A DNA stretch of 64,000 nucleotides, taken from an uncultured bacterium. Lineage in GTDB: Bacteria; Babelota; Babeliae; Babelales; RVW-14. Position numbers and translations under genes: made by a program. The DNA lies in contig CAIKAH010000002.1 in NCBI GenBank assembly GCA_903825355.1, positions 15,359-79,358 of the forward strand. The letters run 5' to 3'. Below are positions 5,836 to 46,394 of this stretch, piece by piece (within the stretch, counting starts at the first letter, position 1; each line of letters starts with the position of its first letter). The notes under the pieces were generated by a model that worked only from the letters and a program-made list of their open reading frames with translations, made no database searches and was not told the DNA's origin.

Positions 5836-8250
5836 TTGGACGAACAGATCAAACTTTTGCTTAAGGGTGCCACTACCGTGAATCACGAACTATATGAAAT
5901 GTTGCGTGGGCTTTCTGCCAGCACCATCAGTGCACTTACTACTACAGCCTCTTTTCAGCGTGGCCGCCGTTATCAGGAAGAAGGGCGCGTTGTCTCCATG
6001 ACCTGGGATACGGATGAGACAGCCGGCCGCCTTATTGCAAAAGTACGCGGCACCAAAACGTATCGGGTAATTATTTATTTGTACGATGGCGAGCTTATGG
6101 CACGTTGCAGTTGCCCTGCCTGGGAGCCAGACTTGAACTGTAAGCACGTAATCGCTGTTCTGCTTACTGCGCGAGAAACACTGGATGAACCAGTCGCTGT
6201 ACCAGTTCCTCCCCCTGTCTGCCATGGCACCATTATTAGAGAAGACGGCGAGTTAATGGTTGCGCTTGCCGATACGTTGTATTTGAATGCATTTAAGACA
6301 GTAATGGAAACCTTTAAAAGTCCATTTGTTGATGGTAGAACAGCAATGGTTCGTGTGCCGTATGCGGAATTTTATGAAAAATTACCTGAATTTACCAAGC
6401 GCTTACAGGCTGATGGAATAGAATTGCAAGTAAATGGTAAGCGACCAGAACCAATGAAGCTGGATGTTTCTATTGATACTGCTCAAGGATCTCGTTCTGA
6501 TTGGTTTGAGCTTGCTCCCCATATTGTTGCTGATGGCATTGAACTTACCGATGAACAGCGGGATGAGTTATTTTCTCGTGCCGATGTATTTGTTGAAACG
6601 AATGATACGATAAAACTACTGGATCCTCAAGCGCAGGCAATACTTGATCTGCTTGCTAAAATGTTTAGTGTAAGTGGCCGCGGAATGACGCTGATTCAAA
6701 AGCCCGGGATTGTAGAGATGCCACGCTTGCGGATGCTTGATCTGATTGGCTTGCGTCAGTGTGGTGGCAAGGTAACGCTTTCTGAAGAAGATGAACAGCT
6801 GATCAAAGGTCTTACTGATTTTAAGGCTATAGCAAAAGTACAAATGCCAGAGCATTTTGTTGGTAAGTTACGATCGTACCAGCATGAAGGGTACCAGTGG
6901 CTTGCCTTTTTGTATTCGCATCGCTTTGGGGCTTGCTTAGCAGATGATATGGGGCTTGGTAAAACAGTACAAGTAATTGCTTTTTTGGGTGGCATTGCAG
7001 AAGGTATTATTCCGAATCGCAGCAAAAAAAATGATCCGCATCTTATTGTGCTGCCGCCAACCTTAGTATTTAATTGGCAACGAGAGCTGCAGACATTTTA
7101 TCCCTCCCTCCGTGTGTTGGAGTATACCAGTGCAAAGAAAAATAAAAGCACCAACCTTGCTGATTATGATGTGATATTGACAACGTATGACCGTGTGCGA
7201 TTGGATATTGAATTTTTACAACAACAGCAGTTTCATGTGCTTATTTTAGATGAAGCACAGGCTATTAAAAATATGCAAACGGGTAGGACTGCCGCCATTC
7301 GCCAGCTCAATAGCTTATTTACTATTGCTGTTACAGGAACGCCGTTAGAAAACCATTTAGGTGAATATTATTCGATTATCGATGTTGCAGTGCCAGGACT
7401 TCTTCCTGACTATAAAGAATTTATGCGAGCGGTTCAGAGCCAAGATGTTGACGATCTTATTAAAAAAACGCGCCCCTTTGTGCTGCGGCGGACTAAAGAC
7501 AAAATATTAAAAGACTTACCGGCAAAAGTAGAATCAAATGTACTGTTGAACATGGCTCCTGATCAGCAAAAATTATATGCTACCACTGCTGCTCAGGTGA
7601 AACGTTTGATTGATGACGCCTATATACTTAAAACAAGTGCACAGGCAAATGTAATTGCGCTCACAGCCATTATGCGGTTGCGGCAGTTGTGTATTTCTCC
7701 GCAAATGATTGATCCGACCTTGCCGGCCTCATCCCCAAAAATTGAATATTTAACGAGTAATTTGCGTGATATCGTCCAAGAAGGAAATGCGGCGTTAGTC
7801 TTTTCGCAATTTACTTCTTGCCTCGACTTAATTGAGACGGCGCTAAAAAAAGAGCAGCTTGCATATTATCGTATTGACGGTAGTACCAAAATAGCTGAAC
7901 GAAAAAAAATAGTTGCAGCGTTTCAAGGCGAAGAGCCGGGGACTGCTATTTTATTGCTGAGTTTAAAAACAGGTGGGGTTGGTCTCAATTTAACACGCGC
8001 AAACTATGTCTTTCATGTAGACCCATGGTGGAACCCAGCTGTAGAGCATCAGGCTTCTGATCGATCACATCGTATTGGCCAAAAGCAAAAAGTGTTTGTA
8101 ACACGCTTAGTAATGCACCATACGATTGAAGAAAAAATGATGGCACTTAAGGCTACCAAGCAAAAGCTTTTTACTGAAGTAATGGAACAAGCAGGCACTA
8201 AGACAAAGAGCTTGATTACTAAGCACGATTTGGACATGCTTTTTAGCTGA
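5836..8250 (+). CDS. SNF2-family helicase with N-terminal SWIM zinc finger
   Basis: CSCP...CKHVIA (SWIM); LADDMGLGKT, DEAQ, TGTPLEN, LVFSQF, QASDRSHRIGQ. Confidence 0.95.
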   Translation: MDEQIKLLLKGATTVNHELYEMLRGLSASTISALTTTASFQRGRRYQEEGRVVSMTWDTDETAGRLIAKVRGTKTYRVIIYLYDGELMARCSCPAWEPDLNCKHVIAVLLTARETLDEPVAVPVPPPVCHGTIIREDGELMVALADTLYLNAFKTVMETFKSPFVDGRTAMVRVPYAEFYEKLPEFTKRLQADGIELQVNGKRPEPMKLDVSIDTAQGSRSDWFELAPHIVADGIELTDEQRDELFSRADVFVETNDTIKLLDPQAQAILDLLAKMFSVSGRGMTLIQKPGIVEMPRLRMLDLIGLRQCGGKVTLSEEDEQLIKGLTDFKAIAKVQMPEHFVGKLRSYQHEGYQWLAFLYSHRFGACLADDMGLGKTVQVIAFLGGIAEGIIPNRSKKNDPHLIVLPPTLVFNWQRELQTFYPSLRVLEYTSAKKNKSTNLADYDVILTTYDRVRLDIEFLQQQQFHVLILDEAQAIKNMQTGRTAAIRQLNSLFTIAVTGTPLENHLGEYYSIIDVAVPGLLPDYKEFMRAVQSQDVDDLIKKTRPFVLRRTKDKILKDLPAKVESNVLLNMAPDQQKLYATTAAQVKRLIDDAYILKTSAQANVIALTAIMRLRQLCISPQMIDPTLPASSPKIEYLTSNLRDIVQEGNAALVFSQFTSCLDLIETALKKEQLAYYRIDGSTKIAERKKIVAAFQGEEPGTAILLLSLKTGGVGLNLTRANYVFHVDPWWNPAVEHQASDRSHRIGQKQKVFVTRLVMHHTIEEKMMALKATKQKLFTEVMEQAGTKTKSLITKHDLDMLFS

Positions 8251-8277: not shown

Positions 8278-9621
8278 ATGTTGTGTGCTAAAAATAGGGT
8301 GGTGGTTGTTATAGGTATTTTAGTATTTCTGTTGCTATCTCTTTGGCTGTATTTGCATGTGGGAGGGGTGCGCCCACATTGTGACGTCGATTCTATGGCG
8401 TACGTGGAGCGAGCGGCTTTTCTAACAACGACGGGTACTTTTTGCAATCCTCTTGCCCCTGCATTGCCGTACTACGGGCTGGGATACCCTTTGTTTCTAG
8501 CAACCATCAATTATTTTTTTGGTACTTCTTTTGTGTGGATAGTGTTGGCTCAACTTTTACTGACGCTTTTAAACTTTTTTATTATTTGTCATATAGCAAC
8601 TATGCTTTTTGGAACTAATACTCGTTATATTGCCTTTATACTCGCAACCACCAGCTTCGGCTATCTTATTTTTGCACAGTTTATTTTAACCGAGTTGCTG
8701 CTAGCAACATTGCTTACAGCATCGTTTTATTTTTTGCTACAGCCGCAACGTCTTTCTAGTGCTTGTTATGCGGGTTTATTGCTTGGCTTGTCGGTGCTAG
8801 TTAAGCCAGTAGCTTTATACTTTACTATTCCGTTGGTAGTTTTCTGGGGGGCTCTTTTTTGGCGCCATGCACTTGTTTTTGTACTTTGTTTTTGGCTGAT
8901 CCTGGGGGGATTGTTGCTCCATAATTATTATGTATTTGGTGCGCCACGGCTTGGCTCACTTGCTTCAATCAATTTGTGCTATTGGTTTTACCCGTATCTG
9001 CTTGCGCATGAAAAAGGTACTTTGGTTGAATATGAGCGAGCTGAGCTCTGTAGGCGGCAGCCGTACGTTAACCAAGTAATGCCTGAGCTAGTTGCAGCAG
9101 TAAAAGATCGGCCCTTGGTTGCTGCTTGGTATTGGTTTTTTAATATGTTTAAGACTGCTGTTGGTCTGTATGTTACTAATTTGAAAGTACTGATGGGCGG
9201 GGTACGTGGTGGCGATGTCTCTTTTTTTAAACAAACAGGCTCGATATGGCAAAAGATGTGGGGATATATAACCATGGGCACGACAGAGGCCTGGGTAGTA
9301 GGTGCAGCTGTTAGCGAGGCTGTTTTATTGGCTGGCCGGTATATGTTTGTATTGCTAGGACTGTATCGATTAGTCTTTGTTTTTAAAAAAACAAACAATC
9401 GTATCGAAGCCTATAAAAATGAATACGCATGGCAACTCTATCTTTGTGTTGCTTTTTTAGGGTACTTTCTTATGGTAACGGGGCATGACGGCTGTGCACG
9501 CTTTCGTATGATGATCGAGTTTTTGCTTATTGTATTGGCGGCTGGTGGGCTGAATCACTGTGTTAACTCTTTAGGGAGGAAACAAGTATGTGCACGCTTA
9601 AGATATTGGGGATCACCGTAA
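8278..9621 (+). CDS. Membrane GT-C fold glycosyltransferase (ArnT/PMT family 39-like)
   Basis: Multiple TM segments; DSMAY, GYPLFL, ILTELL, LSVLVKP motifs. Confidence 0.7.
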   Translation: MLCAKNRVVVVIGILVFLLLSLWLYLHVGGVRPHCDVDSMAYVERAAFLTTTGTFCNPLAPALPYYGLGYPLFLATINYFFGTSFVWIVLAQLLLTLLNFFIICHIATMLFGTNTRYIAFILATTSFGYLIFAQFILTELLLATLLTASFYFLLQPQRLSSACYAGLLLGLSVLVKPVALYFTIPLVVFWGALFWRHALVFVLCFWLILGGLLLHNYYVFGAPRLGSLASINLCYWFYPYLLAHEKGTLVEYERAELCRRQPYVNQVMPELVAAVKDRPLVAAWYWFFNMFKTAVGLYVTNLKVLMGGVRGGDVSFFKQTGSIWQKMWGYITMGTTEAWVVGAAVSEAVLLAGRYMFVLLGLYRLVFVFKKTNNRIEAYKNEYAWQLYLCVAFLGYFLMVTGHDGCARFRMMIEFLLIVLAAGGLNHCVNSLGRKQVCARLRYWGSP

Positions 9622-10235: not shown

Positions 10236-13200
10236 CTAAAGCTCTGATGGGGGAAGAAGGTCTTTTGCTGTCAAATTATATTTATCTTTAATTGAGGTAC
10301 TTGCACCTTTGTCGCGTAAGAGCTTATAGACAGTGGTTTTTTCTTGTTTCCCATAAAATTGCTTTCTAACCGCTACATGTAGTGCGGTTTGTCCATCGCT
10401 ATTCTGTGTATCTATGTTTGCGCCAAGAGTAAGAAGGCATTCGGCAGCCTGAAGGGCGCTGTAATCAACGGCTGTCATGAGTGGGGTTTTTTTAGTAGCT
10501 GGGTCTGGCGTATCAAGTATATTAAGTCCTTGAGTTTCATTTGCCCATGTATGAAGCTGTTCAATCATGTTGGCTGGGTTATTATTAGCAACAATACAGT
10601 TCATTGCCCCATGTATTGAGTAGGTACTACCAGGGGTTGTGATAAGAGCAATAAGCTGTTGAAAATTGCCCTCTCTTATAGGAGTTTCTAGAATTTTTGC
10701 TTTTTCACGTTCTTGTTGTTCTTTTTCTCGTTTGATCCGCTCCTGCTCAGCTTCTTTTTCGGCTTTGATTTCGTCAGAATGTTTAGCACCACGACGCTTG
10801 AGTTCTTCTCTGATAGTGGATAGCTGCTCTATATACAGCTTTTTACTCGCAGCACTTAGTGATGGGCATAGTGTTTTGGGAGCGCTTACTGCTACATCTA
10901 ATGGGGTTTGCAGCTCTATGTTAAGGCTGTTTATGTCAGCACCTTTGTGGTCTAAAAGATAGATGACTTGATCTAATGAACCATTTTGTACAGCGCTATG
11001 CAAAACGTCATTTGCTTGCAAAATGGCAGATTCTTCTTCTGTTTGGCGGATTCTATTGATTCTATGGTTGATAAACAATTGTGCTGTACGAAGGTTGTTG
11101 TTTCTAATAGCAAGGTTAATTGGACTGACTCCGTCAAGGTTTTTAGAATCTATATTGGCAATTCCATTTAAATTATCTAAGACATATTTTGGCGTGGCTA
11201 AAGCTTTGCATAATGCTGCATAATGGAGAAGAGTGTTCCTATTTAAAGAGTTTATATGTCTAGTTGCATTATGAGTCTCAATAAGATTTTTTATTGTTGG
11301 TAGGTGCCCTTGCTCAGTAGCATAACACAGCGCGGGTACTTGCATGGTATTGAGATCATCTACATTGAAGTGATAAAATTCAATAAGATGAGAAGTCAGT
11401 ACTTTGTTGCCATTTGCTGCTGCATAATGCAATAGTGAGTCGCCATTATTGTTTCGGACTGATTTATTAGCGCCTTGCGTGATAAGATAGTCAATAAATT
11501 TAGGTGATGCGTTACAGCAAGCCTCCTGTAATGGTGTTCTTGGGCAACTCAATACAGGTCTGTTTAGCGTATTAACGTGAATATGTTGTTTAAGCTCTTC
11601 TATTGCATAGCGGACAACAGCTAAAGAATTACTTTTTGCAGCAAAATGAAGGAGTGTATTGCCATTCGAGCAAGCTGCGTTTGCAATAGCTCCTCGCATA
11701 TGTAGGTTTTGAACCACAGGAAGGCTTCCACTTTCTAGTGCGCAGCAAAGTAAAGTGTCTCCAGATTTGTTGGGAGTGTTTAGGTTAATAATTTGTCCTA
11801 ATGTATCTAAAACATAGTTGAGTGTAGCTTCAGATCTACTTTGGGCGGCAAAATGTGCGAGGGTATCACCTGATGTTGTTTTAACAGAAGCATCTGCATG
11901 ATATTTACTAGAAAGAAGTTCTATTGTTGCCATGTGTCCATGATGGACGGCGTTGCAGAATGCTGTTTTATTAGATTTGTTACCAGTATTGGGTGAAAAT
12001 CCGTATTTTTCGATAAGAAAACAAACAAGCTGAATGTTGCCCCATCCTGTTGCGTAGAAAAGAGCATTGCTGTGTGTGTGCATATTTGTGTTCATTGCGT
12101 TTGCTCCAGCATTTACTAGGAGCTGGAAAATTTCTGGTGAGCATGATTTGGCTGCAAGGAGTAATGGTGTGTTACCGCTATTGTTAGGAACGTTTAGAGC
12201 AGGCTTTTGGCCTAAGCTTTCCAGCGTATAACGAATAATTTCCTCTGTGTTACTTTGAGCGGCAAAGTGTAGTAGTGTATTGCCTTCACTGTAGTAATCG
12301 ATTTTTGCACCACGATCAATAAGATTTTGTACTAATGATAATGGTCCGTGTTTTAGCGCTGAGCAGAGAATGGTTTTTTCGCTATCATTTGGGGTATTTA
12401 GGTATGCCGCAAATCCGAGTGAATCTAAAACATAATTTAGCGTTGCTTCAGATTTACTTTTTGCTGCGGCTTGTAGTAGCGTATTTCCTTTATCCGTTCG
12501 TATTTTTGTGTTCGCATGGTGGGTAGATATCAATAGTTTTGCTAGTGATAATTGATTATTTTGAATAGCCAAATATAGGGGCGTTCTTCCTTTGAAATCT
12601 CTTGCGTCTTGCGTTAGCCCATAATTTGTAATAAGCGTAGTGATGAGTTTTTGATTGCCCCAGCCTGCAGCGTAGTGAAGGGCAGAGCTGTTAGTCTTGA
12701 CAGTTAGTGCTAGCGGATCGGCTCCTTTTTCAACAAGAAAGTTGAATGCTGCTGGTGAGCAGCTTCGAGCGGCTAGGTGAATGGGCATTTCTCCGTAATT
12801 ATTAGCGTTGTTAATCACTCTACTTTGTCCTAGTGCCTCTAAGGTATAGGCTATAACGTTGAGTGAAGAGTTTTCTACTGCATAGTGAAGCAAAGAATTG
12901 CCGTTTAAGCAGTTAGTGTTTGTGCAAATTTCTCGTGCTATAAGATTTTTGATTACAGGTAGGCTGCCAGATTTTAGTGCAAGGCATAGCAATGTTTCAT
13001 TAGCATAATTTACCATCTGGAGGTTGCTTATTTCTCCGAGGTTGTCTAAGACGTAATTGAGGATCGCTTCAGATTTGCTTTCTGCAGCACAATGAGCAAG
13101 CGTATTACCTTGCTTGTTTTTTATCTTAGTTTCTGCTCCATATTTACTGCAGAGCAGTTCAATGATTGAAACTTCTCCTGATTTGATAGCGTAATGCAAC

Positions 13201-15353
13201 GGTGTTTGGTTGTTTGCATCAAGAGCATTAACTGGTACGTGATAATATTCAATAAGATGATTAACAAGGGTAATGTTATTACTTGATGAGGCGTTGTGAA
13301 GTACGTTAGATTGATTTTGTGTATTTAATTTCATAGGATCTGCGCCCCTATTAACAAGGAGATCAAAGACCTTGGGTGAACACGTATAAGCTGCTAGAAG
13401 TAGAGGGGTATTCCCTTTATTGTTAGATGTGTTTATGCCAGAAGCTTGGGACAAGTCTTCTAGGGCATACCTAATAATTTCTTCATTATTACTTTGGACG
13501 GCAAAGTGTAGTAGGCTCTCCCCGCTCATGCTTATTTTTGTATTCGCACCACGAGCAATAAGATTTTGTACTAATGATAATGGGCCGTATTGTAATGCTA
13601 TGCACAGAGCAGTTGTGCCATTGTTGTCAGGGGTGTTTATGTGTGCAGTAAGCCCTAGCGTGTCTAAAACATAGTTCAGTGTTGCTTCAGATTTGCTTTT
13701 AGCAGCTATATGAAGCAGTGTGCAGCCATTACTATCTGTGTAAGAGGGTTCTGCGTTAGCGTTATGGTCTGCAATTAAGTGTTTTGCTGTAGAGAGATGC
13801 CTTGCAGAAGTAGCAAACCATAAAGGTGTTTGTCCATGGCTGTTAAGGGCATTTACAGAAATATGGTAATGATCGATGAGATGAGAAATAAGCCCTACAT
13901 TACCATGTCCTGCTGCGTAGTGAAGAATTGTTTCTAGTTGGTATGTTTCGGCAAATGGGTTTGCGCCAGCTGTAACTAAGTAGGTTATTAGTTCAGGAGA
14001 ACCGGCTTTTGCAGCAAAATGTAAAGGGTACTCTCCTGCTTGATTAGTAGCGTGTAAGGACGCAGATTGTCCTAGTTTAAGTAGTGCGTATTCAATAATT
14101 TCGATGGATTTACTTTCTACTGCAAAGTGCAGCAGTGAGTTTTCTTGTGAGCATTTGCTTTCAATTTGTGCTCCTCTAGCTACTAAATTTTCTACAAGAG
14201 AAAGTGGCCCGTATTTGAGCGTGAAGCAGAGGGGGTTGATTCCTGCATGCGTAACAGCATCGATTTGCCCAGAAAAGCCTAGTGTGTCTAATACGTAATT
14301 AAGCATATCAGATGAAGTGCTTTGTGAGGCATAATGAAGTAGATTTTTGCCTGTTCTTGTAAGTATATCTTGTCTTGATCCGTAGCTGATGAGTTTCTGA
14401 GCTGTTTCTAGATGGCCATTTTTGATAGCAAAACAGAGAGGGGATTTTTGTTTTTTGTTTAGCTCATTTGGTGAAAAACCACGCATTTGGATAAGGTGGT
14501 CAATAAGTGTTTCATTTCCTCCTGCAGCTGCATAGTGTATGACCGATTTTTCGTTTTTTAAGTTTTTCATTCCTAATAAAGCTCCATAGGTATCTACCAT
14601 GAGTAGAAAGAGATCAATAGAGCCTTTCTGCGCAGCTACATGGAGAGGGGTTTCTCCTCTGCAGTTGGGGACATTTATCTCCGCTCGCAGATCAAGCTCA
14701 TCTAAAATGTATTGTATGACCGCGATAGAGTTGCTTTTGACAGCAAAGTGCAGGAGCGAATTTCCTGTATCGCTTTTTATACTTTTAGATGCTCCATGAT
14801 CGATTAGTAAGCGAATGGTCTCGAGGTTGCCGTATTGAGCCGCAAGTTGTAGGGCAGAGTAGTTGCCATCGTTCACTTTGCGTGCATTAGGATTTGCACC
14901 GTCAATAAGTGCTCGTTCTACGTCAGTTGGATTACGATCGATGATAGCTAAAAATAACTGACTATCAAGGAGTGCGAGTCGTCTGCTGCTTATTTTTATT
15001 GGAGGTTCAATTTGATTTCCTGCTTCATCTGTCAAACCCATAGAAGTGCTTCTGCATTGTGGGCATCGATGGTCCATTTCAGCTGCTCGATACCCCTTGA
15101 AGCATGAATGGCAAAATGGTTTTTTGCAACATGCTGTGAAAGTGATGTTGCCTTGCTCTGCTTCTATTTCATCTGATTCTGCAAGGCAGACAAGGCATTT
15201 ATCATTTGCTATGCGAGGTCTGGTGTTTCGTGTAGAGATTCTATCGTCTTCTTCTCTGTCACTGTCTCGGGCATGCTTGTGTGGTTGACTGGCAGCAAGA
15301 GTACTTAACAGTCCGCACACAATAAAAAAGTTGATAAAAGTGATAAATTTCAT
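10236..15353 (-). CDS. Large secreted RING-like zinc finger plus ankyrin repeat protein (roughly 35-40 ANK repeats)
   Basis: Probable start MKFITFINFFIVCGLLSTLAAS (ORF track starts at 15416); CLVC...CCKKPFCHSC...CPQC; many G-TPLH-AA ankyrin motifs. Confidence 0.9.
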   Translation of the reverse strand: MKFITFINFFIVCGLLSTLAASQPHKHARDSDREEDDRISTRNTRPRIANDKCLVCLAESDEIEAEQGNITFTACCKKPFCHSCFKGYRAAEMDHRCPQCRSTSMGLTDEAGNQIEPPIKISSRRLALLDSQLFLAIIDRNPTDVERALIDGANPNARKVNDGNYSALQLAAQYGNLETIRLLIDHGASKSIKSDTGNSLLHFAVKSNSIAVIQYILDELDLRAEINVPNCRGETPLHVAAQKGSIDLFLLMVDTYGALLGMKNLKNEKSVIHYAAAGGNETLIDHLIQMRGFSPNELNKKQKSPLCFAIKNGHLETAQKLISYGSRQDILTRTGKNLLHYASQSTSSDMLNYVLDTLGFSGQIDAVTHAGINPLCFTLKYGPLSLVENLVARGAQIESKCSQENSLLHFAVESKSIEIIEYALLKLGQSASLHATNQAGEYPLHFAAKAGSPELITYLVTAGANPFAETYQLETILHYAAGHGNVGLISHLIDHYHISVNALNSHGQTPLWFATSARHLSTAKHLIADHNANAEPSYTDSNGCTLLHIAAKSKSEATLNYVLDTLGLTAHINTPDNNGTTALCIALQYGPLSLVQNLIARGANTKISMSGESLLHFAVQSNNEEIIRYALEDLSQASGINTSNNKGNTPLLLAAYTCSPKVFDLLVNRGADPMKLNTQNQSNVLHNASSSNNITLVNHLIEYYHVPVNALDANNQTPLHYAIKSGEVSIIELLCSKYGAETKIKNKQGNTLAHCAAESKSEAILNYVLDNLGEISNLQMVNYANETLLCLALKSGSLPVIKNLIAREICTNTNCLNGNSLLHYAVENSSLNVIAYTLEALGQSRVINNANNYGEMPIHLAARSCSPAAFNFLVEKGADPLALTVKTNSSALHYAAGWGNQKLITTLITNYGLTQDARDFKGRTPLYLAIQNNQLSLAKLLISTHHANTKIRTDKGNTLLQAAAKSKSEATLNYVLDSLGFAAYLNTPNDSEKTILCSALKHGPLSLVQNLIDRGAKIDYYSEGNTLLHFAAQSNTEEIIRYTLESLGQKPALNVPNNSGNTPLLLAAKSCSPEIFQLLVNAGANAMNTNMHTHSNALFYATGWGNIQLVCFLIEKYGFSPNTGNKSNKTAFCNAVHHGHMATIELLSSKYHADASVKTTSGDTLAHFAAQSRSEATLNYVLDTLGQIINLNTPNKSGDTLLCCALESGSLPVVQNLHMRGAIANAACSNGNTLLHFAAKSNSLAVVRYAIEELKQHIHVNTLNRPVLSCPRTPLQEACCNASPKFIDYLITQGANKSVRNNNGDSLLHYAAANGNKVLTSHLIEFYHFNVDDLNTMQVPALCYATEQGHLPTIKNLIETHNATRHINSLNRNTLLHYAALCKALATPKYVLDNLNGIANIDSKNLDGVSPINLAIRNNNLRTAQLFINHRINRIRQTEEESAILQANDVLHSAVQNGSLDQVIYLLDHKGADINSLNIELQTPLDVAVSAPKTLCPSLSAASKKLYIEQLSTIREELKRRGAKHSDEIKAEKEAEQERIKREKEQQEREKAKILETPIREGNFQQLIALITTPGSTYSIHGAMNCIVANNNPANMIEQLHTWANETQGLNILDTPDPATKKTPLMTAVDYSALQAAECLLTLGANIDTQNSDGQTALHVAVRKQFYGKQEKTTVYKLLRDKGASTSIKDKYNLTAKDLLPPSEL

Positions 15354-36900: not shown

Positions 36901-39900
36901 AACGGGCTATTCCCGCCAATGGTAAGTATGTTTTGCTTCGTAAAAATGTTTTTGGTTCCGGCAATGATAAAAAGGGTCGTGTTACCTATGACGCACTTGC
37001 TGGCTGTTCTGACGAGCAAAAAGCACTATTTGATACAGATCAAAATCTGAATAAATACAAGCCCTTATTTGAAATTTGTAGTAAGCAAGAATATGCCTAC
37101 GATGCTCTTATTATGGCGACAGATGATCAAAAAAAAGCGGCAATAAAAGCATTGATTCCTGAACTTGAAAAATGTTTGCCAGAGCTCAGAAAAGAGCTTC
37201 AACAGATATTAGTGCAAAAAATAAATGCTAAGAAGGAGGCTGTGCGCATCGGTGCTCCGGGAGCAAAGCCGCTTGTAAAGTTGCTTGACCAGGAGACTGG
37301 ATTGCAAAACGTACTTGCTAAGTATACGGAAGTACTTACGGCTCTTAGTAATGCAGTACAAGAAGAAACTAGAGCCGAGTTTGCAAAAGAAATTCGTGCT
37401 AAAAATAAGAATTTTGTTGAGCTTATAACTAATAATACAAAAAAATTAGGTGACGCATTTCTGTTTAATCTGAGAGAATTTACAGAAGCAAATAACTTTA
37501 AAGTCTTTTTTGGTAATCTGACAGAAAATAATCAAGCATTTATGGAGATAAGAAAAATCGCTGAGTGGTTGCGTCCTCACGTGGCAGGTCTAGTTTTTGA
37601 CCAAAAATCAATATATCAATCTACATTAGCACTATACCGTCGAGTTAGTAGCGCTGATAAAACTCCCCCAACCCCGCTTGCAAGCCTTTCTCATGACCGA
37701 AAAACTGTTGAGTATCCGCCGTTTATGCAGCACCTAGAGGCTTCTAAACAAAGCTTTTCGATAGAGCATGGTGTTGGTAGACGTGCGCGTACAACCGTTA
37801 TTACTGATCACGCAATACTTGAAATAATGAGTGAAAAAATAACCAAGCCATTGCTGTATTTAATGCGCTATCACCTACTACCATGGTCTGCCCATTACAA
37901 CTCACCGTGTATGACGGAAGAACAGGTTGCTCAGATTTGCCGTGTTGACCGTGCAGCATATGAACATTTTCTTTCAAGGAAAGCAGCGTCTGGAAAAGAT
38001 GATAGTGAAGCGTCTGCCGAGGATGCACTAGCTTCTTCCGCAAGAGGCTCTAGTCGCAGAGGAGGCAATACGAGTGCTCAAAAAGGTGCAGACGCTTTTC
38101 AAGCAGCTTTAATGAATCTGGTTGATAAAAAGGCCACTAGTGCACTTCATAAAAATCCTGAAAAAGCAGGAGCAACCGGTGGGGCTTTAGCTCTGCCTGG
38201 TGCTACTGGTAGCGAAAGGCTCATCGTGCTCCAGAAACCTAATGGTGCTGCCGTTGCTACTCGCGTAGCAGTTGCACCTTCTACGAAAGTAACCATTGAT
38301 AAAGGCAAGGGCAGCAATCTTGAGGTTGCAGTACCTGCATTTGCATCTGTTGAATTAAGAAAGGCAGCCGAGAAAGACCAGCAGGCTGTAGCTGCGGTGC
38401 AAAAATCAGAGCTTGAAAAAATATTCGCTGCTAGAAAAAAAGAAGCAGAAGATAGTCTAGCAGTTGCAGTGCAGGGTGGTACTGAAGAAGAGGAACCGCA
38501 AGCGGCAGCGCATGGAGCAGCAATGATTACCGGTAAGCTAGCGGGTGAGATACGCAGAGCGCGTAGCTCTGCAGAAAAAGCTAAGTTATTGCAGGAGGCT
38601 TCATACGGAGAGATTGAGCCTATTTATGCTTATGAATTGATTAAAGATGCTCTAGAAATGCCTGGTGTGGAGCATGCTTCTGTTGAATCGTTATTGTCTG
38701 TGCTGGCAGTGAAGGGGGTGCCAATTTCGACGGTCTTAAGCCATACACATGAAGACATGCATGGGCGTACAGCATTAGCTAGAATTGCCATGAAGAGTGC
38801 GTATGTTCTACCTGAGGTTGTTGCCTGTTTAGTGGGATGGGGCTTGAACGTAAATACTGCCATTATATCAGAGGGTACTGAGCCTAATTTTGGTGAACTA
38901 GTTGCCACATCATCAGTGAGTGATTTGTACGATTACAATAAGGTATATGCATTGTTTAATTGCGATGCTAATGATTTTATACGAGGCAGTCTAACTCAAG
39001 ACGCATTGCAAACCTGGGGTGCCAATTTGCTTAAGAATGCACAGAAGGTGTTTGTCGATTGTCTAGAGATGTTAAGTGCTTATGATAAAGATCCTGAGAA
39101 ACACCCTTCGATGAACAGTGGGGCCCTCGAGGCATTGCTGGTGCGCATGCAAGAATTCGTAGTGAAAGCGCAACTAGTTGAATGGTTGAATAAGAAAGCG
39201 CCAATAGGAGACAAAAACATTAGCCCTGCTTCGGTTATTGAGAGCTTGTCAGCCGAAAGGTTTGACATGTTTAAACAGCAGGTAAAAGCATTTATTGCAG
39301 CAGGCGAAGAAGAGCCATTTGTATCGCAGTTTGTGGATAACGCGCATGTTAGCGACGATGAAGTGAGTGCTGCCTTGGCGGTGCTTGGGGTTGGGCAAGA
39401 TGCTGATTGGGATGCAATACGGGCTAGATATAGAGCGTTAGCTCTAAGCGAGCATCCAGATAAAGTATCTGGGAGTGAGGCAGCTAAAGCAGCAGCTACG
39501 GAGGAGTTTCAGAAAATAGCAGCAGCGTATGAAGTGTTGAAGCTGAAACATAACCCAAGAGAGGTTGCTCCTAGTGATGAGGTGGATGAAGATGAAGATG
39601 GCGCCGATGTAGAAAGAAAGCGAGCAGAGTCTCCTACCAGGGGGGGCGATGGTCGTCCTGTGCAGACTTTTGTCGATTATTTTGATCCAGAAGCAGCAGC
39701 AACGCCAAAGGAAGCTTCACCTGGGCTGGCAAATACCTCTGGTAATGATTGTTTTATCAATACCATGTTGCAATGTGTGTTCTCAAGCCCTGAGCTGGTT
39801 AATTACATTCATAGCGTGGTGAATGATTCAGAGATAAAGGAACGAGTTGATGAACGCAAAAGAAACTTAATTCATGCTAATCGCGATTTTACTGAGGCAG

Positions 39901-40990: not shown

Positions 40991-42595
40991 ATGCAAAAAA
41001 TTTGTTTAGATCTGAAAGAGTTCAAAACAATCCGCCAGCAAGGAGGGTTGTACGTTGACAAGACAAAGTATATCTATGAAATTTTTGGTAACGGCTCGTA
41101 TTTTTTTCTTGCTCGTCCCCGTCGTTTTGGTAAATCATTGCTCTGTGCCACGTTAGCAGAATTGTTTGCAGGTAACCGCCATCTTTTTAAAGGCTTGTGG
41201 ATTGATGGCAGTGATTGGGCGTGGAAAAAGCATCCGGTTATTCGCTTGGATATGAGCAAGGCGGCTTCGCCTGTAGCAACACCAGAAGAAGTTCGCGGCT
41301 ATATGGTAGATTTGCTCAACAGCAGCGCAAAGCATCTTGGACTACCTGCAAACACCCTCAGGCAGGGTACACCAATGGCAATGCTGAGTGATTTAATTGC
41401 GCAGGCTAAAGAAGCTTTTGGTGAGCAGGTGGTGGTTATCATCGATGAATACGATAAACCACTGCTTGATGTGATTCAAGATCGCTCTCGCTATACGGCA
41501 ATTCAAGAGGAGTTGAGCGCTTTTTATAGTCAGCTCAAGCCGGCCGAAGAAGATATCAGGTGTGTGTTGATTACGGGCGTATTTAAGTTTACTAAAACCT
41601 CAATATTTTCTGGCCTTAATAATTTGAATGATATCACCTTTAAGCCGAGGGCTGCAGCATTATTGGGGTACACAGAGCAAGAGATTAGAGCGGTTTTTGC
41701 AGACCATCTAGCTGCGGTGGCTGCTGCGTATAAAAAAACGGTCGACGAAATGATGCTTGTCCTTCGTGACAGGTATAACGGGTATTTTTTTGGCGTGAAT
41801 TTGGCAAGTAATGAACTTTCTGCTGGGGTGTATAATCCATATGCTATGAATTATGTTTTTGCAGAGCAGCAGCAGCTAGACCGGTGGTTTAGTTCAGGCT
41901 CGCCGTCAGCCTTAATTAAAAAATTAACCAGCGAACAATTTGAAGCGCTAGAGCCAGCGCGTTTGACAATGTCTTTTTCAGCATTAGAAACATCATGCAG
42001 CCCAGATGATATGACTGCATTGAGTATGTTGTACTATGCTGGGTATCTGACGCTTAAGCACTGCTTTAATAAAAAAGTGACGCTTGGCTTTCCTAATGCA
42101 GAGGTGGCAGGTGCATTTTCAGATGCCTTACTGCCTGCGTTACTGCAAAAAAGTGTTTTTTTTGTTGCGGGGCTTATTGATGAAATACACGACCTGTTTT
42201 GCCAAGAGCGCTTAGATGATTTGAAACAGCTCCTCAATGACGCCCTGGCGCCTGTAGCTTATCCAGTACTAGCACAGCCAGCTGCAAGCGCAGAGCTGCT
42301 GCCAGAGCGCGTGTACCAAATAGCATTTTATTACTTATTTATTGCGAGCAAAATGCCTACAACGTTAGAGGATATGACTAATCGTGGCCGCATTGATATT
42401 GTCGTAGAAGGGCCTCGGTCATTTTATATTTTTGAGCTTAAAATCAATGAGCCAGCGTCAGTAGCGATTGCCCAAATTAAAGAAAAAGAGTACACGGCAA
42501 AGTTTCGGCACAAGGGTAAACAGCTTTATGCCGTTGGCATCTCGATAGACACAGCAAAGCGCTCAGTGGCAGAGCTGATGTGGGAACGTTTTTAG
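40991..42595 (+). CDS. AAA-ATPase-like domain plus PD-(D/E)XK nuclease (PDDEXK_9) protein
   Basis: YVDKT, RPRRFGKSL, IIDEYDKP, NGY.F, YNP; C-terminal GRIDIVV...IFELK. Confidence 0.9.
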   Translation: MQKICLDLKEFKTIRQQGGLYVDKTKYIYEIFGNGSYFFLARPRRFGKSLLCATLAELFAGNRHLFKGLWIDGSDWAWKKHPVIRLDMSKAASPVATPEEVRGYMVDLLNSSAKHLGLPANTLRQGTPMAMLSDLIAQAKEAFGEQVVVIIDEYDKPLLDVIQDRSRYTAIQEELSAFYSQLKPAEEDIRCVLITGVFKFTKTSIFSGLNNLNDITFKPRAAALLGYTEQEIRAVFADHLAAVAAAYKKTVDEMMLVLRDRYNGYFFGVNLASNELSAGVYNPYAMNYVFAEQQQLDRWFSSGSPSALIKKLTSEQFEALEPARLTMSFSALETSCSPDDMTALSMLYYAGYLTLKHCFNKKVTLGFPNAEVAGAFSDALLPALLQKSVFFVAGLIDEIHDLFCQERLDDLKQLLNDALAPVAYPVLAQPAASAELLPERVYQIAFYYLFIASKMPTTLEDMTNRGRIDIVVEGPRSFYIFELKINEPASVAIAQIKEKEYTAKFRHKGKQLYAVGISIDTAKRSVAELMWERF

Positions 42596-42624
42596 CTGTT
42601 CAAAAAATAGAACATAATCGAATG

Positions 42625-42882
42625 TTAGGCGTGTCCAATGCCTGAAGAATCTGGGAGGCGGAAAAAGTCATCCCATACCTCTTCGTAATACTCTTCATAC
42701 TCATCTTCTTCTGCGTAGAAAAAGACTGGGTCATAGCTAGGCTCGTAGATGGCTTCGTACTCGGTGGAATAGGTACAGAGGAGGGGTCCGCTCTTCCACC
42801 CCTGCGGGGCGTGGTTCGACTGGCTCACCAGGAGCGGGAGGGTGCAAATGATCGGATTTTGTAGGTCAGATGGTGTGTTCAT
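42625..42882 (-). CDS. Possible small acidic Tyr/Glu-rich protein containing a palindromic element
   Basis: 85-aa ORF; biased C-terminus YAEEDEYEEYYEEVWDDFF; N-terminal third is the repeat read in-frame. Confidence 0.3.
   Translation of the reverse strand: MNTPSDLQNPIICTLPLLVSQSNHAPQGWKSGPLLCTYSTEYEAIYEPSYDPVFFYAEEDEYEEYYEEVWDDFFRLPDSSGIGHA
42788..42837 (+). repeat. Structured palindromic element, TGGT/ACCA variant
   Basis: CCGCTCTTCCACCCC-tgc-GGGGCGTGGTTCGACTGGCTCACCAGGAGCGG. Confidence 0.9.
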
Positions 42883-42992
42883 AAAGTGCCTAAATCGAGC
42901 GTGCTAATCAGTTCGTGTAAGAGAAATATACCGCCCAATTTGGTTTTATCAATCAAAAAATACAAAATAATTAAATTCATTCAAGTAGAATT

Positions 42993-43048
42993 TATTTTAT
43001 CTGTTCAACCCGGTTTAAAAATACTTTTAGTCGACGATAATCGTTGCC
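42993..43048. repeat. 56-bp direct repeat, copy 1 (duplicate of 3' end of gene 44286..45041)
   Basis: TATTTTATCTGTTCAACCCGGTTTAAAAATACTTTTAGTCGACGATAATCGTTGCC; 2 mismatches to 44287..44342. Confidence 0.9.
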
Positions 43049-43055
43049 CGAGAAC

Positions 43056-44192
43056 CTATAGCGGCTGGGCGCCTTCTTGCAGCAAATCTAGATATTTTTT
43101 ATATACAAATTGTCGGTTGCGCTTGCTTCCTGTTTGTTCAGTTAATATGCCTGCCGCAACAAGCTCTTTAAGTACACTGTTAGCGGTAGGGAATGAGATT
43201 GCTAAGCGCTGAGCGAGTGCCGTAGCTGAAGTGAGGGGGTATTGTGGTAATGTTTCAAATGCATGCAATACGGTTGCGCGGACGTTTTGGGCAAAAAGCT
43301 CTTTCTTGTCCTGCTCAATGCATTGGACTAAGCTTGTAATACGCTGGCTAGCATCTTGTGCTGCTTGCAGCGTCGCATTAAGAAAAAAAGTAATCCACTG
43401 CTCATAATCGCCTTGTTCACGTACCATCATAAGTCGATCGTAATACTCCTGCCGTGCGCGTTTAAAATGGTAGCTGATATAGAGCACTGGGTCAGTAATA
43501 ACCTGTTTCCACTGTAAATAAAAGATAATGAGCAGCCTGCCAATACGGCCATTGCCATCGAGGAATGGGTGGATAGTTTCGAATTGGTAGTGCATAAGGG
43601 CGGCCGCAATTAGTGGATGCTCCGTTGCTTGATGCATATACATTTCAAGATTGCCCATTAATGGCAGAAGCTCTTCTGGAGGGGGCGGTACATAAGCTGC
43701 TTGCTCTAGGCTGCAGCCAGCAAAACCAATCCAATTTTGTGAGCGACGAAATTCGCCAGGCGTTTTATCGCCGCCTCGCACTCCCTGCATTAAAATACTA
43801 TGGAGTTCTTTAATAAGTCTAATCGAAAGTGGAATGGTAGCCAGGCGGCTATTGCCATAGTTAAGGGCGTGAATGTAATTTACTACTTGTTGTACATCGT
43901 TTACATGTGCCGGGACTATACCTTGTTCAAACGAGAGTAAACTTTCTAGCGACGCCTGTGTTCCTTCAATTTGGGAACTAAGTAGAGCTTCCCGTTTGAC
44001 GTACATTGCCAAATACAAGTCTTTATTAGGTAAAACATGCGCTTTTGTATTTAGCTCGTGTAGAATTTTTACGGTTTTATCCAGGAGTTCTTGTAACGAG
44101 GGTGTAATGAAAAGTGATGGAGGAAGGGGCGTTGGGATAAACGCCTTATACCCTTTGAGTTGTGATCGGTAGTGGCCTGAACGGGGAATCAT
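43056..44192 (-). CDS. Fic family protein (N-terminal Fic/DOC, C-terminal HTH)
   Basis: EALLSSQIEGT; HYQFETIHPFLDGNGRIGR canonical Fic motif. Confidence 0.95.
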   Translation of the reverse strand: MIPRSGHYRSQLKGYKAFIPTPLPPSLFITPSLQELLDKTVKILHELNTKAHVLPNKDLYLAMYVKREALLSSQIEGTQASLESLLSFEQGIVPAHVNDVQQVVNYIHALNYGNSRLATIPLSIRLIKELHSILMQGVRGGDKTPGEFRRSQNWIGFAGCSLEQAAYVPPPPEELLPLMGNLEMYMHQATEHPLIAAALMHYQFETIHPFLDGNGRIGRLLIIFYLQWKQVITDPVLYISYHFKRARQEYYDRLMMVREQGDYEQWITFFLNATLQAAQDASQRITSLVQCIEQDKKELFAQNVRATVLHAFETLPQYPLTSATALAQRLAISFPTANSVLKELVAAGILTEQTGSKRNRQFVYKKYLDLLQEGAQPL

Positions 44193-44285
44193 AGTCTGCT
44201 CCTTCGATTTTTAATAAGACTAGCAAAAACTAGTTCTTATTAAAAATATTTTAAATAAAGAGCGGTTTTTATTAAAAATGCTGCC

Positions 44286-45041
44286 CTATTTGATCTGTTC
44301 AACCCGGTTTAAAAATACTTTTAGTCGGCGATAATCGTTGCCAGAGAGCAGGGCAAATCCATGGCTGACTTCTTCCAAAAAGCTGGGTGAGAGGAGATTT
44401 TTGGCCTTAACCGTCCGAATGACGGCGAGGAGCAATTCATCTAGGTTCTGGATCGCGTTAGAAAAGCCGTAGAGTACTTCTAGAAATTGAGCATCAGCAA
44501 AGAATTGTGTAGCGATATCAGTTGATGCTTCGCTAATGAATGCATGAATTTTTGGTGGGTTTGGGGGCACGGCAAAAATGATTTGTTTATTCGCTCTTCT
44601 ACCTCCTTCGGAGGCATCCTTCGACAGGCTCAGGAGGAGCGAATCAGCTGCATCCATATCACCCAGCTCACCAGGAGCGGAGAGTTGCATCGCTCTTCCT
44701 GAGCTTGTCGAAGGACGCGGCTGTAAGCCGTGGAAAAGCGATGCGGGTATATATCCACACGCTTGTACCGTAAACGTTGTTTTTAAAAAAGCAAAAATCT
44801 GTGGCTGCTCGCGTTCAAGTTCTTCTTCCGTTTTCTGGTAAGCGAACGGCGTGCGCGATGGATCCATGGAGCCGGTTTGAATACCGGTAACAAGACCAAG
44901 CACTTGTAGCTCTTTGTCTTGGATGCTAACCAATGAGCCAAAGGTAGGAAATTGTTTCCATTCCCAGCATTGAGCAGTGTAGTGGTCAAGCGAAGATTCG
45001 ATTACTTCAGCAAAAAAGGGATGTTTGTTTTGGCTGGTCAT
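44286..45041 (-). CDS. HAS-barrel-like conserved protein with in-frame palindromic insertion
   Basis: AEVIESS, PTFGSLV, EEELEREQPQIFAFLKT, PPNPPKIH resemble bacterial HAS-barrel proteins (recalled, not searched); about 50 aa internal segment is repeat-derived. Confidence 0.7.
   Translation of the reverse strand: MTSQNKHPFFAEVIESSLDHYTAQCWEWKQFPTFGSLVSIQDKELQVLGLVTGIQTGSMDPSRTPFAYQKTEEELEREQPQIFAFLKTTFTVQACGYIPASLFHGLQPRPSTSSGRAMQLSAPGELGDMDAADSLLLSLSKDASEGGRRANKQIIFAVPPNPPKIHAFISEASTDIATQFFADAQFLEVLYGFSNAIQNLDELLLAVIRTVKAKNLLSPSFLEEVSHGFALLSGNDYRRLKVFLNRVEQIK
44287..44342. repeat. 56-bp direct repeat, copy 2 (the 3' end of the HAS-barrel-like gene)
   Basis: TATTTGATCTGTTCAACCCGGTTTAAAAATACTTTTAGTCGGCGATAATCGTTGCC. 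Confidence 0.9.
44590..44643 (+). repeat. Structured palindromic element, intragenic
   Basis: TTCGCTCTTCTACCTCC-ttc-GGAGGCATCCTTCGACAGGCTCAGGAGGAGCGAA. Confidence 0.9.
44687..44744 (-). repeat. Structured palindromic element, intragenic, inverted partner of 44590 copy; partial third copy at 44664-44680
   Basis: GCATCGCTCTTCCTGAGCTTGTCGAAGGACGCGGCT-gta-AGCCGTGGAAAAGCGATGC. Confidence 0.9.
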
Positions 45042-45702
45042 GGGGCTCTACAAAGTTTTTAATAAAGGTTGTTCGATGAATGGCACAGGGTCCGTGCTCT
45101 TTGAGCGCTGCAATATGTTCGGCAGTACCGTACCCTTTGTTTTGCATAAAGTTATAGGCTGGAAATTGTGCTGAAAGCTCTTCCATCAATCGGTCGCGTG
45201 TTACTTTTGCAACAATTGAGGCCGCTGCAATAGAAGGGGAGAGCGATTCGCCATAGTTAAAATAATGGCATTCTAGGCCTGTAGGCTTTTCTTCAGCAGC
45301 AATTTTGAGCGGCATGGCATCTACCAGGACATATTTAAGCAGTGCGGGGTCGCATGGTAATGTTTGCATCAGATTCAGGTAGGCATGCTTCATGGTGAGT
45401 AGCGTTGCTTGGTAAATATTTATCGTATCAATGGTCTTGTGATCAGCAACTGCAGTTGTCCATGCGCAGTGCTCAGTAATCCAGGAAAATGCTTTTTCGC
45501 GCTGTGCTTTGGTCATTATTTTTGAGTCTTTGAGCATTGGCTGGTTGGTGTATAACGGCAGTATGACTGCACCTACGACTACCGGGCCGGCAAGGCACCC
45601 ACGGCCAGCTTCATCAATACCCATAGCACGTTTTTGCGTGGCCCAGGCTTGCGTTTCAAAGTATAATTTTTTTGGCGATTCTACGCTTCTATTCATATTC
45701 AT
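45007..45702 (-). CDS. rnhB: Ribonuclease HII
   Basis: GIDEAGRGCLAGPVV, LKDSK, VLVDA, SIAAASIVAKVTRD, NKGYGT; start reset to ATG 45702 because the ORF-track extension to 45795 is repeat and GIY-YIG sequence. Confidence 0.95.
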   Translation of the reverse strand: MNMNRSVESPKKLYFETQAWATQKRAMGIDEAGRGCLAGPVVVGAVILPLYTNQPMLKDSKIMTKAQREKAFSWITEHCAWTTAVADHKTIDTINIYQATLLTMKHAYLNLMQTLPCDPALLKYVLVDAMPLKIAAEEKPTGLECHYFNYGESLSPSIAAASIVAKVTRDRLMEELSAQFPAYNFMQNKGYGTAEHIAALKEHGPCAIHRTTFIKNFVEPHDQPKQTSLFC

Positions 45703-45726
45703 GTAAGCAACTAGTTTGTTAAGTCC

Positions 45727-45776
45727 CCGCTCACCCTGAGCTTGTCGAAGGGCGCCCCGTAGGGGTGGAAGAGCGG
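45727..45776 (-). repeat. Structured palindromic element overlapping GIY-YIG 3' end and providing its TGA
   Basis: CCGCTCACCCTGAGCTTGTCGAAGGGCGCCCC-gta-GGGGTGGAAGAGCGG. Confidence 0.95.
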
Positions 45777-46060
45777 GTATTATAAGTTTTTGCAAATGTA
45801 CTAATATCTTGCCATTTACCTTCTATAAGAGCACGTTTTTTGCTTCTACTCCATCCCTTTATTTGTCTTTCTGCTTGAAAAGCTTCATTGCGTGAAGGCA
45901 TAAGTTGCTGAAAAACTAATTGAACAGGCCGTCTACTTGCAGTCCAACAGTACTGAAAAGCCACGACATTATGCTCAGCAATTCTTTTACGCATATCATC
46001 AGTGTGCCCTACATAAAAAGAGCCATCGCTGCACTCAAGAATATAAACTGAAAATTTCAT
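45731..46060 (-). CDS. Stand-alone GIY-YIG nuclease (UPF0213-like)
   Basis: VYILECSDGSFYVGHT..MRKRIAEHN, RRPVQLV, EAFQAERQIKGWSRSKKRAL. Confidence 0.95.
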   Translation of the reverse strand: MKFSVYILECSDGSFYVGHTDDMRKRIAEHNVVAFQYCWTASRRPVQLVFQQLMPSRNEAFQAERQIKGWSRSKKRALIEGKWQDISTFAKTYNTRSSTPTGRPSTSSG

Positions 46061-46082: not shown

Positions 46083-46132
46083 CCGCTCTTCCACCGCTTC
46101 GCGGCGCCCTTCGACAGGCTCAGGGTGAGCGG
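46083..46132 (+). repeat. Structured palindromic element upstream of GIY-YIG gene
   Basis: CCGCTCTTCCACCGC-ttc-GCGGCGCCCTTCGACAGGCTCAGGGTGAGCGG. Confidence 0.95.
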
Positions 46133-46394
46133 GGATGCTAATAACAAGAGGGTTATAATCTTCTAATTGAGCAGTAAGTAAAATTAATATTTAATCAAAG
46201 TTAGTCCTTTGTGCATGTTATCACACAATGATTTTTTTCTCATCTAAAAGGATTAAGACATTTTTTTGCCTCCATGTCACAAAAAATTTTATGATACATG
46301 TAGTAATTTTTTCTGGCTTTTGAAATGACGTTTGATTATATTATGAAAAAGTTATGGCAATGTTTGAATTTTTGGCAAAGCAGGAAGGGATTTC

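Follow-up and report, generated by a model that had tools for sequence, protein, structure and literature searches.

A Fic gene between two copies of a HAS-barrel gene end in an uncultured member of Dependentiae

How does a single gene for a toxin-like protein come to lie at the stop codon of a conserved gene, with a second copy of that gene's last codons on its far side? This question is raised by a stretch of 64,000 nucleotides from an uncultured bacterium of the phylum Dependentiae, order Babeliales (GenBank assembly GCA_903825355.1, contig CAIKAH010000002.1, positions 15,359 to 79,358 of the forward strand; hereafter the window), in which a gene for a Fic protein separates a HAS-barrel gene (the host gene) from a displaced copy of its own 3′ end. 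The original prediction, made from the sequence of the window, had described a 56-bp duplication at 42993–43048 and 44287–44342 on either side of the Fic gene and had read it as a cassette that was either trans-mobilised or a relic. The results showed that the cassette is a genuine single-gene insertion at the host-gene 3′ end; the host gene keeps an intact end and its original end is displaced distally, in keeping with the replacement 3′ end that had been proposed. The insertion-and-relic part of this explanation is near certain. The statement as a whole, that the structure is an old and now fixed insertion-duplication of a SoFic-type unit at the HAS-barrel stop codon, joined independently of an integrase, is given an even chance of being right.

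The window belongs to genome G000, a metagenome-assembled genome (MAG) of 1.39 Mb in 57 contigs that is 95.5% complete. The comparison set consisted of 41 related genomes and about 95 host-gene loci or neighbourhoods, and 0.83 Mb of other Babeliales loci was used for the scar search. The congeners are G003 (locus L022), G001 (L023) and G002 (L021), and contigs with the same site came from other metagenomes (L065–L070 and L125–L130). The insertion point is the stop codon of the host gene, read on the minus strand; the proximal repeat copy is called copy A and the distal one copy B. The features of the locus are the following (ORF, open reading frame; aa, amino acids).

44286–45041, minus strand: host gene, encoding a 251-aa HAS-barrel protein (Pfam HAS-barrel match; taken from the ORF list)
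44287–44347, minus strand: copy A, the functional host-gene end, comprising its last 19 codons and the TA of the stop codon
43054–44286, minus strand: inserted DNA proper, 1,233 nt, made up of the 93-nt leader, the Fic coding sequence and 2 nt; the empty sites of G003 and G001 lack it
44193–44285, minus strand: cassette leader, 93 nt, with promoter-like TTAATA-16-TAAAAT (44275 to 44248) and ribosome-binding site GAAGGAG
43056–44192, minus strand: Fic coding sequence, 378 aa, Pfam Fic_N and Fic, SoFic-type class II AMPylase
42993–43053, minus strand: copy B, the displaced, untranslated original host-gene 3′ end, with stop codon TAA at 42992–42994
42883–42992, minus strand: ancestral intergenic region, with promoter-like TTGATA-16-TATATT (42952 to 42925) of the acidic ORF
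42625–42882, minus strand: small acidic ORF, 85 aa, the ancestral downstream neighbour, present in filled and empty genomes

The duplication and the empty site

Repeat finding and alignment showed a direct repeat at 42993–43053 and 44287–44347 that is 61 nt long, identical at 58/61 positions, with a spacing of 1294; the predicted duplication is thus real and 5 nt longer than first drawn. Read on the minus strand, each copy encodes (S)GNDYRRLKVFLNRVEQIK-stop. The codon differences between them (TCG/TCT, CGT/CGC and ATA/ATC) are all synonymous, and the stop codons differ too (TAA/TAG); the last two codon pairs and the stop codons are those that the original prediction had listed. BLAST of the 1.39-Mb assembly, a check that had been suggested, returned these two copies of the core only (E about 1e-20 to 1e-29), the next matches being 12–17 nt long; a chance match and a dispersed element were both rejected on this ground.

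An artefact, namely the mis-assembly of two strains, was also considered. Several contigs do break within copy B or next to it (L067 at the stop codon of Fic; L126 and L129 begin inside the core), and palindromic repeats of 50 nt abound in the genome, as a dispersed repeat family might. However, these breaks fall in the exact stretch that the copies share, the core is unrelated to the palindromic element, and copy B of L065 has diverged and carries a deletion of its own. Furthermore, both copies are read through in four independent assemblies (L068, L070, L065 and the window). As independent assemblies show the same structure, assembly artefact, which had been named in advance as a possible refutation, was rejected, and the probability of an artefact or a chance repeat is negligible.

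Comparison of ORF maps showed an empty site in two congeners, G003 and G001, as the original prediction had suggested looking for: the host stop codon is followed by about 130–150 nt and then by the small acidic ORF, with no Fic gene and no duplication. In the junction alignment, the DNA after copy B was homologous to the DNA after the host stop codon in the empty sites, including TTGATA-16-TATATT and the acidic ORF; copy B therefore runs on into ancestral intergenic DNA. The DNA after copy A is unrelated to empty-site DNA and hence is cargo. Copy A ends in TAG and every other copy or orthologue in TAA, indicating that the junction lies inside the stop codon, between AAATA and G, and the cargo begins at the G of TAG (44286).

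The closest relative, as judged by the genes on either side and by an in-frame repeat-element insert in common, is G002. At the same point it carries a different, unrelated 437-aa ORF without family match, followed by its own terminator, and after this gene lies a host-end relic of about 70–93 nt that is 79% identical and contains non-synonymous changes. A single ancestral duplication common to G000 and G002, with a later swap of cargo, is disfavoured: copy B of G000 was originally identical to its own copy A but differs from copy B of G002 at 13/60 positions, and the left boundaries are different.

The contigs of other strains bear on the origin of the differences between the copies. Copy B of L070 has CGC as in copy A, and copy B of L065 has ATC as in copy A, so the two copies started out identical over 56 nt (GGCAAC...AAATA). 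The few differences now seen are later mutations in copy B, and the weight that the original prediction had placed on their synonymous nature is not supported. Copy B of L065 also has a 10-nt deletion, and its stop codon is mutated to TAT, implying that at least the 5′ third of copy B is decaying. The relic-cassette half of the earlier reading holds.

The Fic gene, its leader and its age

The Fic gene is the only credible ORF between the copies; the ORF list agrees here with the original prediction. The distance of 7 bp given there from the Fic stop codon to the distal copy is correct for the copy as then drawn, but with the 61-nt repeat it is 2 nt. The protein carries the complete catalytic motif HPFLDGNGRIGR at aa 208–219 (43536–43571), which fits HxFx(D/E)GNGRxxR (Pfam Fic, 1.3e-25), so the AMPylase motif is intact as had been stated. 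The inhibitory-helix motif SSQIEG at aa 72–77 (43962–43979) fits class II (S/T)xxxE(G/N), falls within the Fic_N match (residues 41–113) and aligns to the SoFic helix, and weak MarR_2/HTH_24 matches at residues 306–352 mark a C-terminal winged helix. The PADLOC SoFic model matched at 6.9e-115 over its positions 5–359 of 361 (355 of 361 covered), and SoFic chains in PDB matched at 2.8e-37 over residues 15–373. At 166.9 bits the protein misses the 550-bit equivalog cut-off of NCBIfam NF046030 and is a family member, not an equivalog. The possibility that the Fic C-terminus was made from a longer decayed relic (LLQEG vs LLEEV) was rejected, because the ending ...EG(A/T)xPL is native to the family; since the C-terminus ...EGAQPL is a native one, the cassette ends 2 nt past the natural stop.

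The composition of the Fic gene is not anomalous. Its homologues are patchy, being found in 18/41 Babeliales genomes, there with an identity of at most 52%, and never beside the host gene, and the best non-syntenic ones are 52–54% identical; the gene is foreign. SoFic is described as a toxic single-protein abortive-infection defence, and the E. coli SoFic has a 47-aa downstream antitoxin, AS1 (PMC12249575). No gene for a small antitoxin of that kind would fit into the cassette downstream of Fic. The likeliest role of the Fic protein is that of an AMPylating toxin that controls its own expression, or of a defence by abortive infection.

The leader contains two AT-rich palindromes, at about 44210–44244 and 44250–44276, spaced by 32 nt. 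Other SoFic-type genes of Babeliales (L105 1665–1775, L107 2895–3027 and L109 4223–4304) have two to three upstream palindromes with 41-nt spacing. These palindromes are probably operators for the winged-helix domain of Fic itself, which suggests that the protein may regulate its own gene. An Rfam scan of 42500–45100 gave no match. No flanking direct repeats were found around nine other Babeliales Fic loci, except for a duplicated terminator after the Fic gene of L106 in G007: a 38-nt terminator hairpin directly after this SoFic homologue (4171–4208) is repeated, 97% identical, 1.9 kb downstream (6076–6113), and this may be another duplication-flanked insert.

Between G000 and L065 the Fic gene has a dN/dS of 0.048 at a dS of 0.74, implying that the cassette is old and the gene functional; such values point to strong purifying selection. 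The Fic protein encoded at the same site in contigs from other metagenomes (L065–L070 and L125–L130) is identical, a 99% variant or a 94% variant. L068 is 100% identical to the window, and L070, L065/L066 and L067 also carry the structure. Every conspecific contig that spans the site was filled and none showed an empty site. Taken together, these sequences show that the cassette is both old and fixed.

One transfer between strains could be read from the map of mismatches between G000 and L070, which defines the following feature.

42600–44384, about 1.8 kb: recombination tract, G000 vs L070, with 13 mismatches

Mismatches amount to about 11% in the host gene down to 44385, to the 13 between 44384 and about 42600, and to about 6% in the next gene. 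In the host gene proper, distance matrices placed L070 nearer to L065 than to G000. Since the flanks of L070 are diverged and the tract is nearly identical, L070 received from a G000-like strain, by homologous recombination, a segment that runs from the final ~97 nt of the host gene through the cassette and copy B to the acidic ORF. Homologous recombination via the flanks is the only movement of the cassette actually observed.

Routes of insertion

No integrase and no tyrosine or serine recombinase was found on the window contig or in the cassette by searches with PF00589 and PF00239, and the 1.23-kb insert holds no remnant of an integrase, integrase pseudogene, excisionase or relaxase. The statement in the original prediction that no integrase is present is supported. 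The genome-wide search for recombinases proposed there gave two Xer-like genes of the tyrosine family in G000 and none of the serine family, in a MAG that is 95.5% complete. One of the two Xer-like genes is intact and the other (C19:1028–1494) is split by an in-frame TGA or a frameshift; the latter is a pseudogene or a sequencing error. Nearly all of the 41 relatives have just two Xer-like genes, none of them near the host gene. There was no serine recombinase in the genus (PF00239), no tyrosine recombinase in the ~95 host-gene neighbourhoods (phmmer with the Xer protein against all ORFs), and no integrase-bearing element that targets the host gene in the 41 genomes or ~95 loci. These results, together with the filled state of every conspecific contig, give the trans-mobilised half of the original prediction no support.

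Extra tyrosine recombinases do occur in a few Babeliales MAGs, three of them on the small contigs L131 (G037:C7, 8.4 kb), L133 (G029:C4, 11.8 kb) and L134 (G019:C23, 11.1 kb). The terminal overlaps of these contigs are exact (141, 55 and 125 nt, respectively), and they are probably circular plasmids or episomes. Comparison of the circular 8.4-kb integrase contig of G037 with its own genome gave no chromosomal att match and no match elsewhere.

Scars of a similar kind were then found by self-comparison. At least six further 3′-end duplications lie round one or two genes in G000 and in the 0.83 Mb of other Babeliales loci, none of them with an integrase. They include the following.

C24, 12746–12807 / 13655–13716 (G000): end of a transketolase-like gene, 62-nt relic; cargo, a 223-aa secreted ORF
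C31, 5654–5799 / 6705–6850 (G000): end of a DEAD-box helicase gene, 146 nt plus terminator; cargo, a HAD hydrolase
C18, 41513–41637 / 37409–37533 (G000): end of a gene resembling those for outer membrane proteins, 125 nt; 4-kb cargo with AAA/PDDEXK_9, a HigBA-like pair and Rpn-like genes
L054, 10426–10571 / 11356–11501 (also in L082): end of a PrmC gene, 146 nt; cargo, a Gp49(HigB)-like/HTH antitoxin pair
L036, 8097–8228 / 9172–9302: end of a HAD gene, 132 nt; cargo, a 258-aa secreted ORF; beside the HAS-barrel orthologue of G040
L047, 1156–1203 / 1742–1789 (also in L076): end of a Na+/H+ antiporter gene, 48 nt; cargo, a 65-aa ORF

The duplicated ends at C24, C31 and C18 lie 0.9–4.1 kb downstream of the gene. 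The relics and cargos of C24 and C31 are absent from G002, an empty-site proof that is only partial because downstream synteny in G002 differs. Across loci the scar cores are unrelated and their lengths range from 48 to 146 nt; a system specific for one att site is not required by these scars. A literature search on such scars in Dependentiae found nothing relevant.

These findings bear on the view that the cassette is what decay has left of a site-specific integrative element, the counterpart of a cis-mobilisable element (CIME). A tyrosine integrase and an attP holding the last ~56–97 nt of the host gene would have inserted it, deletions would have left Fic with attL and attR, and it would be remobilised only if a related element supplied the integrase. 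Such an origin agrees with copies that were originally identical, with an identity that ends at the stop codon and restores the ORF, with the use of the same point by different cargo in G002, with the core and adjoining leader being the most conserved DNA of the element, and with the extra tyrosine recombinases of a few Babeliales MAGs, three of them on small circular contigs. The size of 1.29 kb is also within the range of CIMEs, which measure 1.2–13 kb and lie in the 3′ ends of fda, rpmG and rpsI in streptococci (PMC7563491). However, no integrase, integrase pseudogene, excisionase or relaxase remnant is seen here or in at least seven comparable scars, no integrase lies beside the host gene in any genome or locus compared, and the genus has Xer-type recombinases only. 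The left boundaries differ between G000 (−61) and G002 (about −93), the unrelated cores and lengths of the other scars would need many lost integrases in an order with few, and the circular integrase contig that was tested had no chromosomal att match. A decayed element is therefore a possible but rather unlikely origin, which is kept as viable because the same point has been used twice and the core and leader are unusually conserved.

The integrase-independent joining of the cassette is considered most likely. It is favoured by the lack of a recombinase beside the gene, by the presence of RecA in G000 (C49:20862–21650), by the same scar at unrelated cores with variable lengths, by an order with few integrases and by a precedent in E. 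coli. There, DNA with one-sided homology was mostly integrated as a circle by a single crossover, with duplication of 109–950 bp of the target, and this route was commoner than true homology-facilitated illegitimate recombination (PMC3240628). In the proposed scheme, a self-contained unit, consisting of its own promoter/operator leader and a self-inhibited SoFic-type Fic, would have been inserted in an ancestor of the G000/L070/L065 lineage (genus UASB124, Dependentiae). Recombination within the last 56–61 nt of the host gene would have made copy A the complete end and left copy B as an untranslated relic joined to the former downstream promoter region. A single crossover of the RecA type is favoured, the incoming DNA being a circle on which the gene end lay next to Fic; alternatively, a one-sided homologous join may have been combined with a one-sided microhomology join (TCTC at the cargo/copy B junction). 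The toxicity of Fic would also favour its retention.

Several observations weigh against this explanation. The host gene together with Fic but without the duplication was not found in the 41 relatives; this arrangement, if general, had been named as a refutation of the original prediction, but its absence also counts against the favoured route, as a circle of gene end plus Fic presupposes such a donor. In the G000 clade and in G002 the proximal boundary of the insert lies within 1 nt of the same stop codon. This gives the appearance of a directed site, although an insert has only about 20 nt of neutral space available before it reaches the downstream promoter. Just 2 nt separate the cargo from copy B, closer than would be expected of a random join, and an integrase could sit in the missing part of the 95.5%-complete MAG. 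Moreover, between G000 and L065 the last 34 nt of copy A show 0 differences, the leader 1/93 (these two segments lie within 44193–44330) and the last 42 nt of copy B (42993–43034) 3, whereas adjoining sequence is 12–26% different and synonymous sites of Fic 47% (pS 0.47). These three segments are thus far more conserved than a dS of 0.74 predicts. They may have a function at the sequence level, att-like or other; constraint on regulation and gene conversion of one copy by the other are further possible contributors. The two candidate mechanisms of insertion are a single crossover by RecA and an integrative element that has since decayed.

A third route is a one-step event of replication or repair, in which a fork or break at the host-gene end switched to foreign DNA, copied Fic and re-entered 56–61 nt upstream, by microhomology template switch or by fill-in of a staggered break, so that both copies stem from the same chromosome. 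Copies identical at birth, duplication lengths of 48–146 nt between loci, the possible TCTC microhomology at the cargo/copy B junction and the lack of a recombinase are all as such an event would leave them. However, the copy A/cargo junction has no microhomology, departure at the stop codon in both G000 and G002 is left unaccounted for, and the capture of foreign DNA in this way is poorly documented in bacteria; the final structure alone cannot tell it from a single crossover. We regard this route as improbable.

A wider reading takes in all of the scars. Babeliales would gain single genes, often addiction or defence cargo such as SoFic or HigBA-like genes, by a recurrent integrase-free route at conserved gene ends that duplicates 50–150 nt; the copies would then serve as portable homology for RecA excision, re-insertion or swap between co-infecting strains, and the relic would be kept for a function in recombination or in downstream expression. 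A relic with a function would explain a conservation far above that of neutral DNA. This proposal is offered tentatively, and we think it doubtful.

The surroundings of the site are also variable. The host gene has orthologues in 40/41 relatives and adjoins rnhB, which it overlaps upstream. Palindromic repeat elements form an insert that adds about 50 aa to it in frame; G002 shares this insert, and G003 and G001 lack it. Copies of this ~50-nt element lie at 42788–42838, 44590–44744, 45724–45776 and 46083–46135. It is translated in frame in the host gene (absent in G003 and G001), at the start of rnhB and in the acidic ORF, where 51 nt at 42788–42838 are lacking in L065. Copies of the element also frame a GIY-YIG gene (45731–46060), which neither G002 nor G003 has. 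The gene that follows the acidic ORF in the window, AAA-ATPase_like/PDDEXK_9 (40991–42595), varies as well: its place is taken by an MlaD-like gene in G002 and G003 and by another AAA gene (AAA_35/DUF8371) in L065, and a paralogue of the AAA-ATPase_like/PDDEXK_9 gene is part of the C18 insert. On a small scale, the site is a hot spot for the turnover of genes.

Significance and comparison with known systems

Mobile elements are barely described in the phylum Dependentiae. The locus offers a case, with empty sites and several strains, of how an intracellular bacterium with a reduced genome gained and kept a toxin or defence gene. If the pattern is general, it would offer streamlined genomes a simple way of gaining genes by recombination, and the 3′-end relic would be a practical marker for recent acquisitions in MAGs. 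For the biology of Fic proteins, the locus presents a SoFic-type gene in an obligate protist symbiont, with a strongly conserved operator-like leader and without an AS1-like partner.

The Fic protein resembles SoFic, the class II Fic AMPylase of Shewanella oneidensis, which PADLOC and DefenseFinder list as an anti-phage system of one gene, over its full-length architecture, with Fic_N bearing an inhibitory S-x-x-x-E-G helix, a Fic core with HPFLDGNGRIGR and a C-terminal winged helix. It differs in scoring 167 bits against the 550-bit cut-off, so that it is a family member and not an orthologue of the studied protein, and, unlike the E. coli SoFic with AS1, it sits in a cassette with no space for such a partner. 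In addition, its bearer is an obligate intracellular, protist-dwelling member of Dependentiae.

As for the structure, the cassette is like a Campbell-type single-crossover insertion-duplication of E. coli in that the insert lies between direct duplications of the homologous locus, the duplications are of variable length, and host recombination functions suffice, RecA being present in G000. In contrast to the E. coli products, which were made in the laboratory, the repeats are shorter (48–146 nt vs 109–950 bp), and the event is a natural one that has become fixed in an uncultured lineage. With CIMEs the cassette shares a short, cargo-only form of 1.3 kb, direct repeats derived from the 3′ end of a conserved protein gene, an intact target ORF, empty sites in relatives and the lack of recombination or transfer genes. 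However, CIMEs descend from an integrative and conjugative element or an integrative and mobilisable element with an integrase of the same specificity and usually stand in tandem with such an element, none of which was seen in the genome, genus or sampled order, and here the repeat lengths at the same site differ between species. Genomic islands at the 3′ ends of tRNA and tmRNA genes likewise leave an intact gene proximally and a displaced fragment distally; unlike them, the cassette has a protein-coding target, a single-gene insert and no integrase next to the target. Both the kind of structure and the kind of cargo were thus already known, and what is new is the Dependentiae setting and the recurrence there of integrase-less 3′-end duplications.

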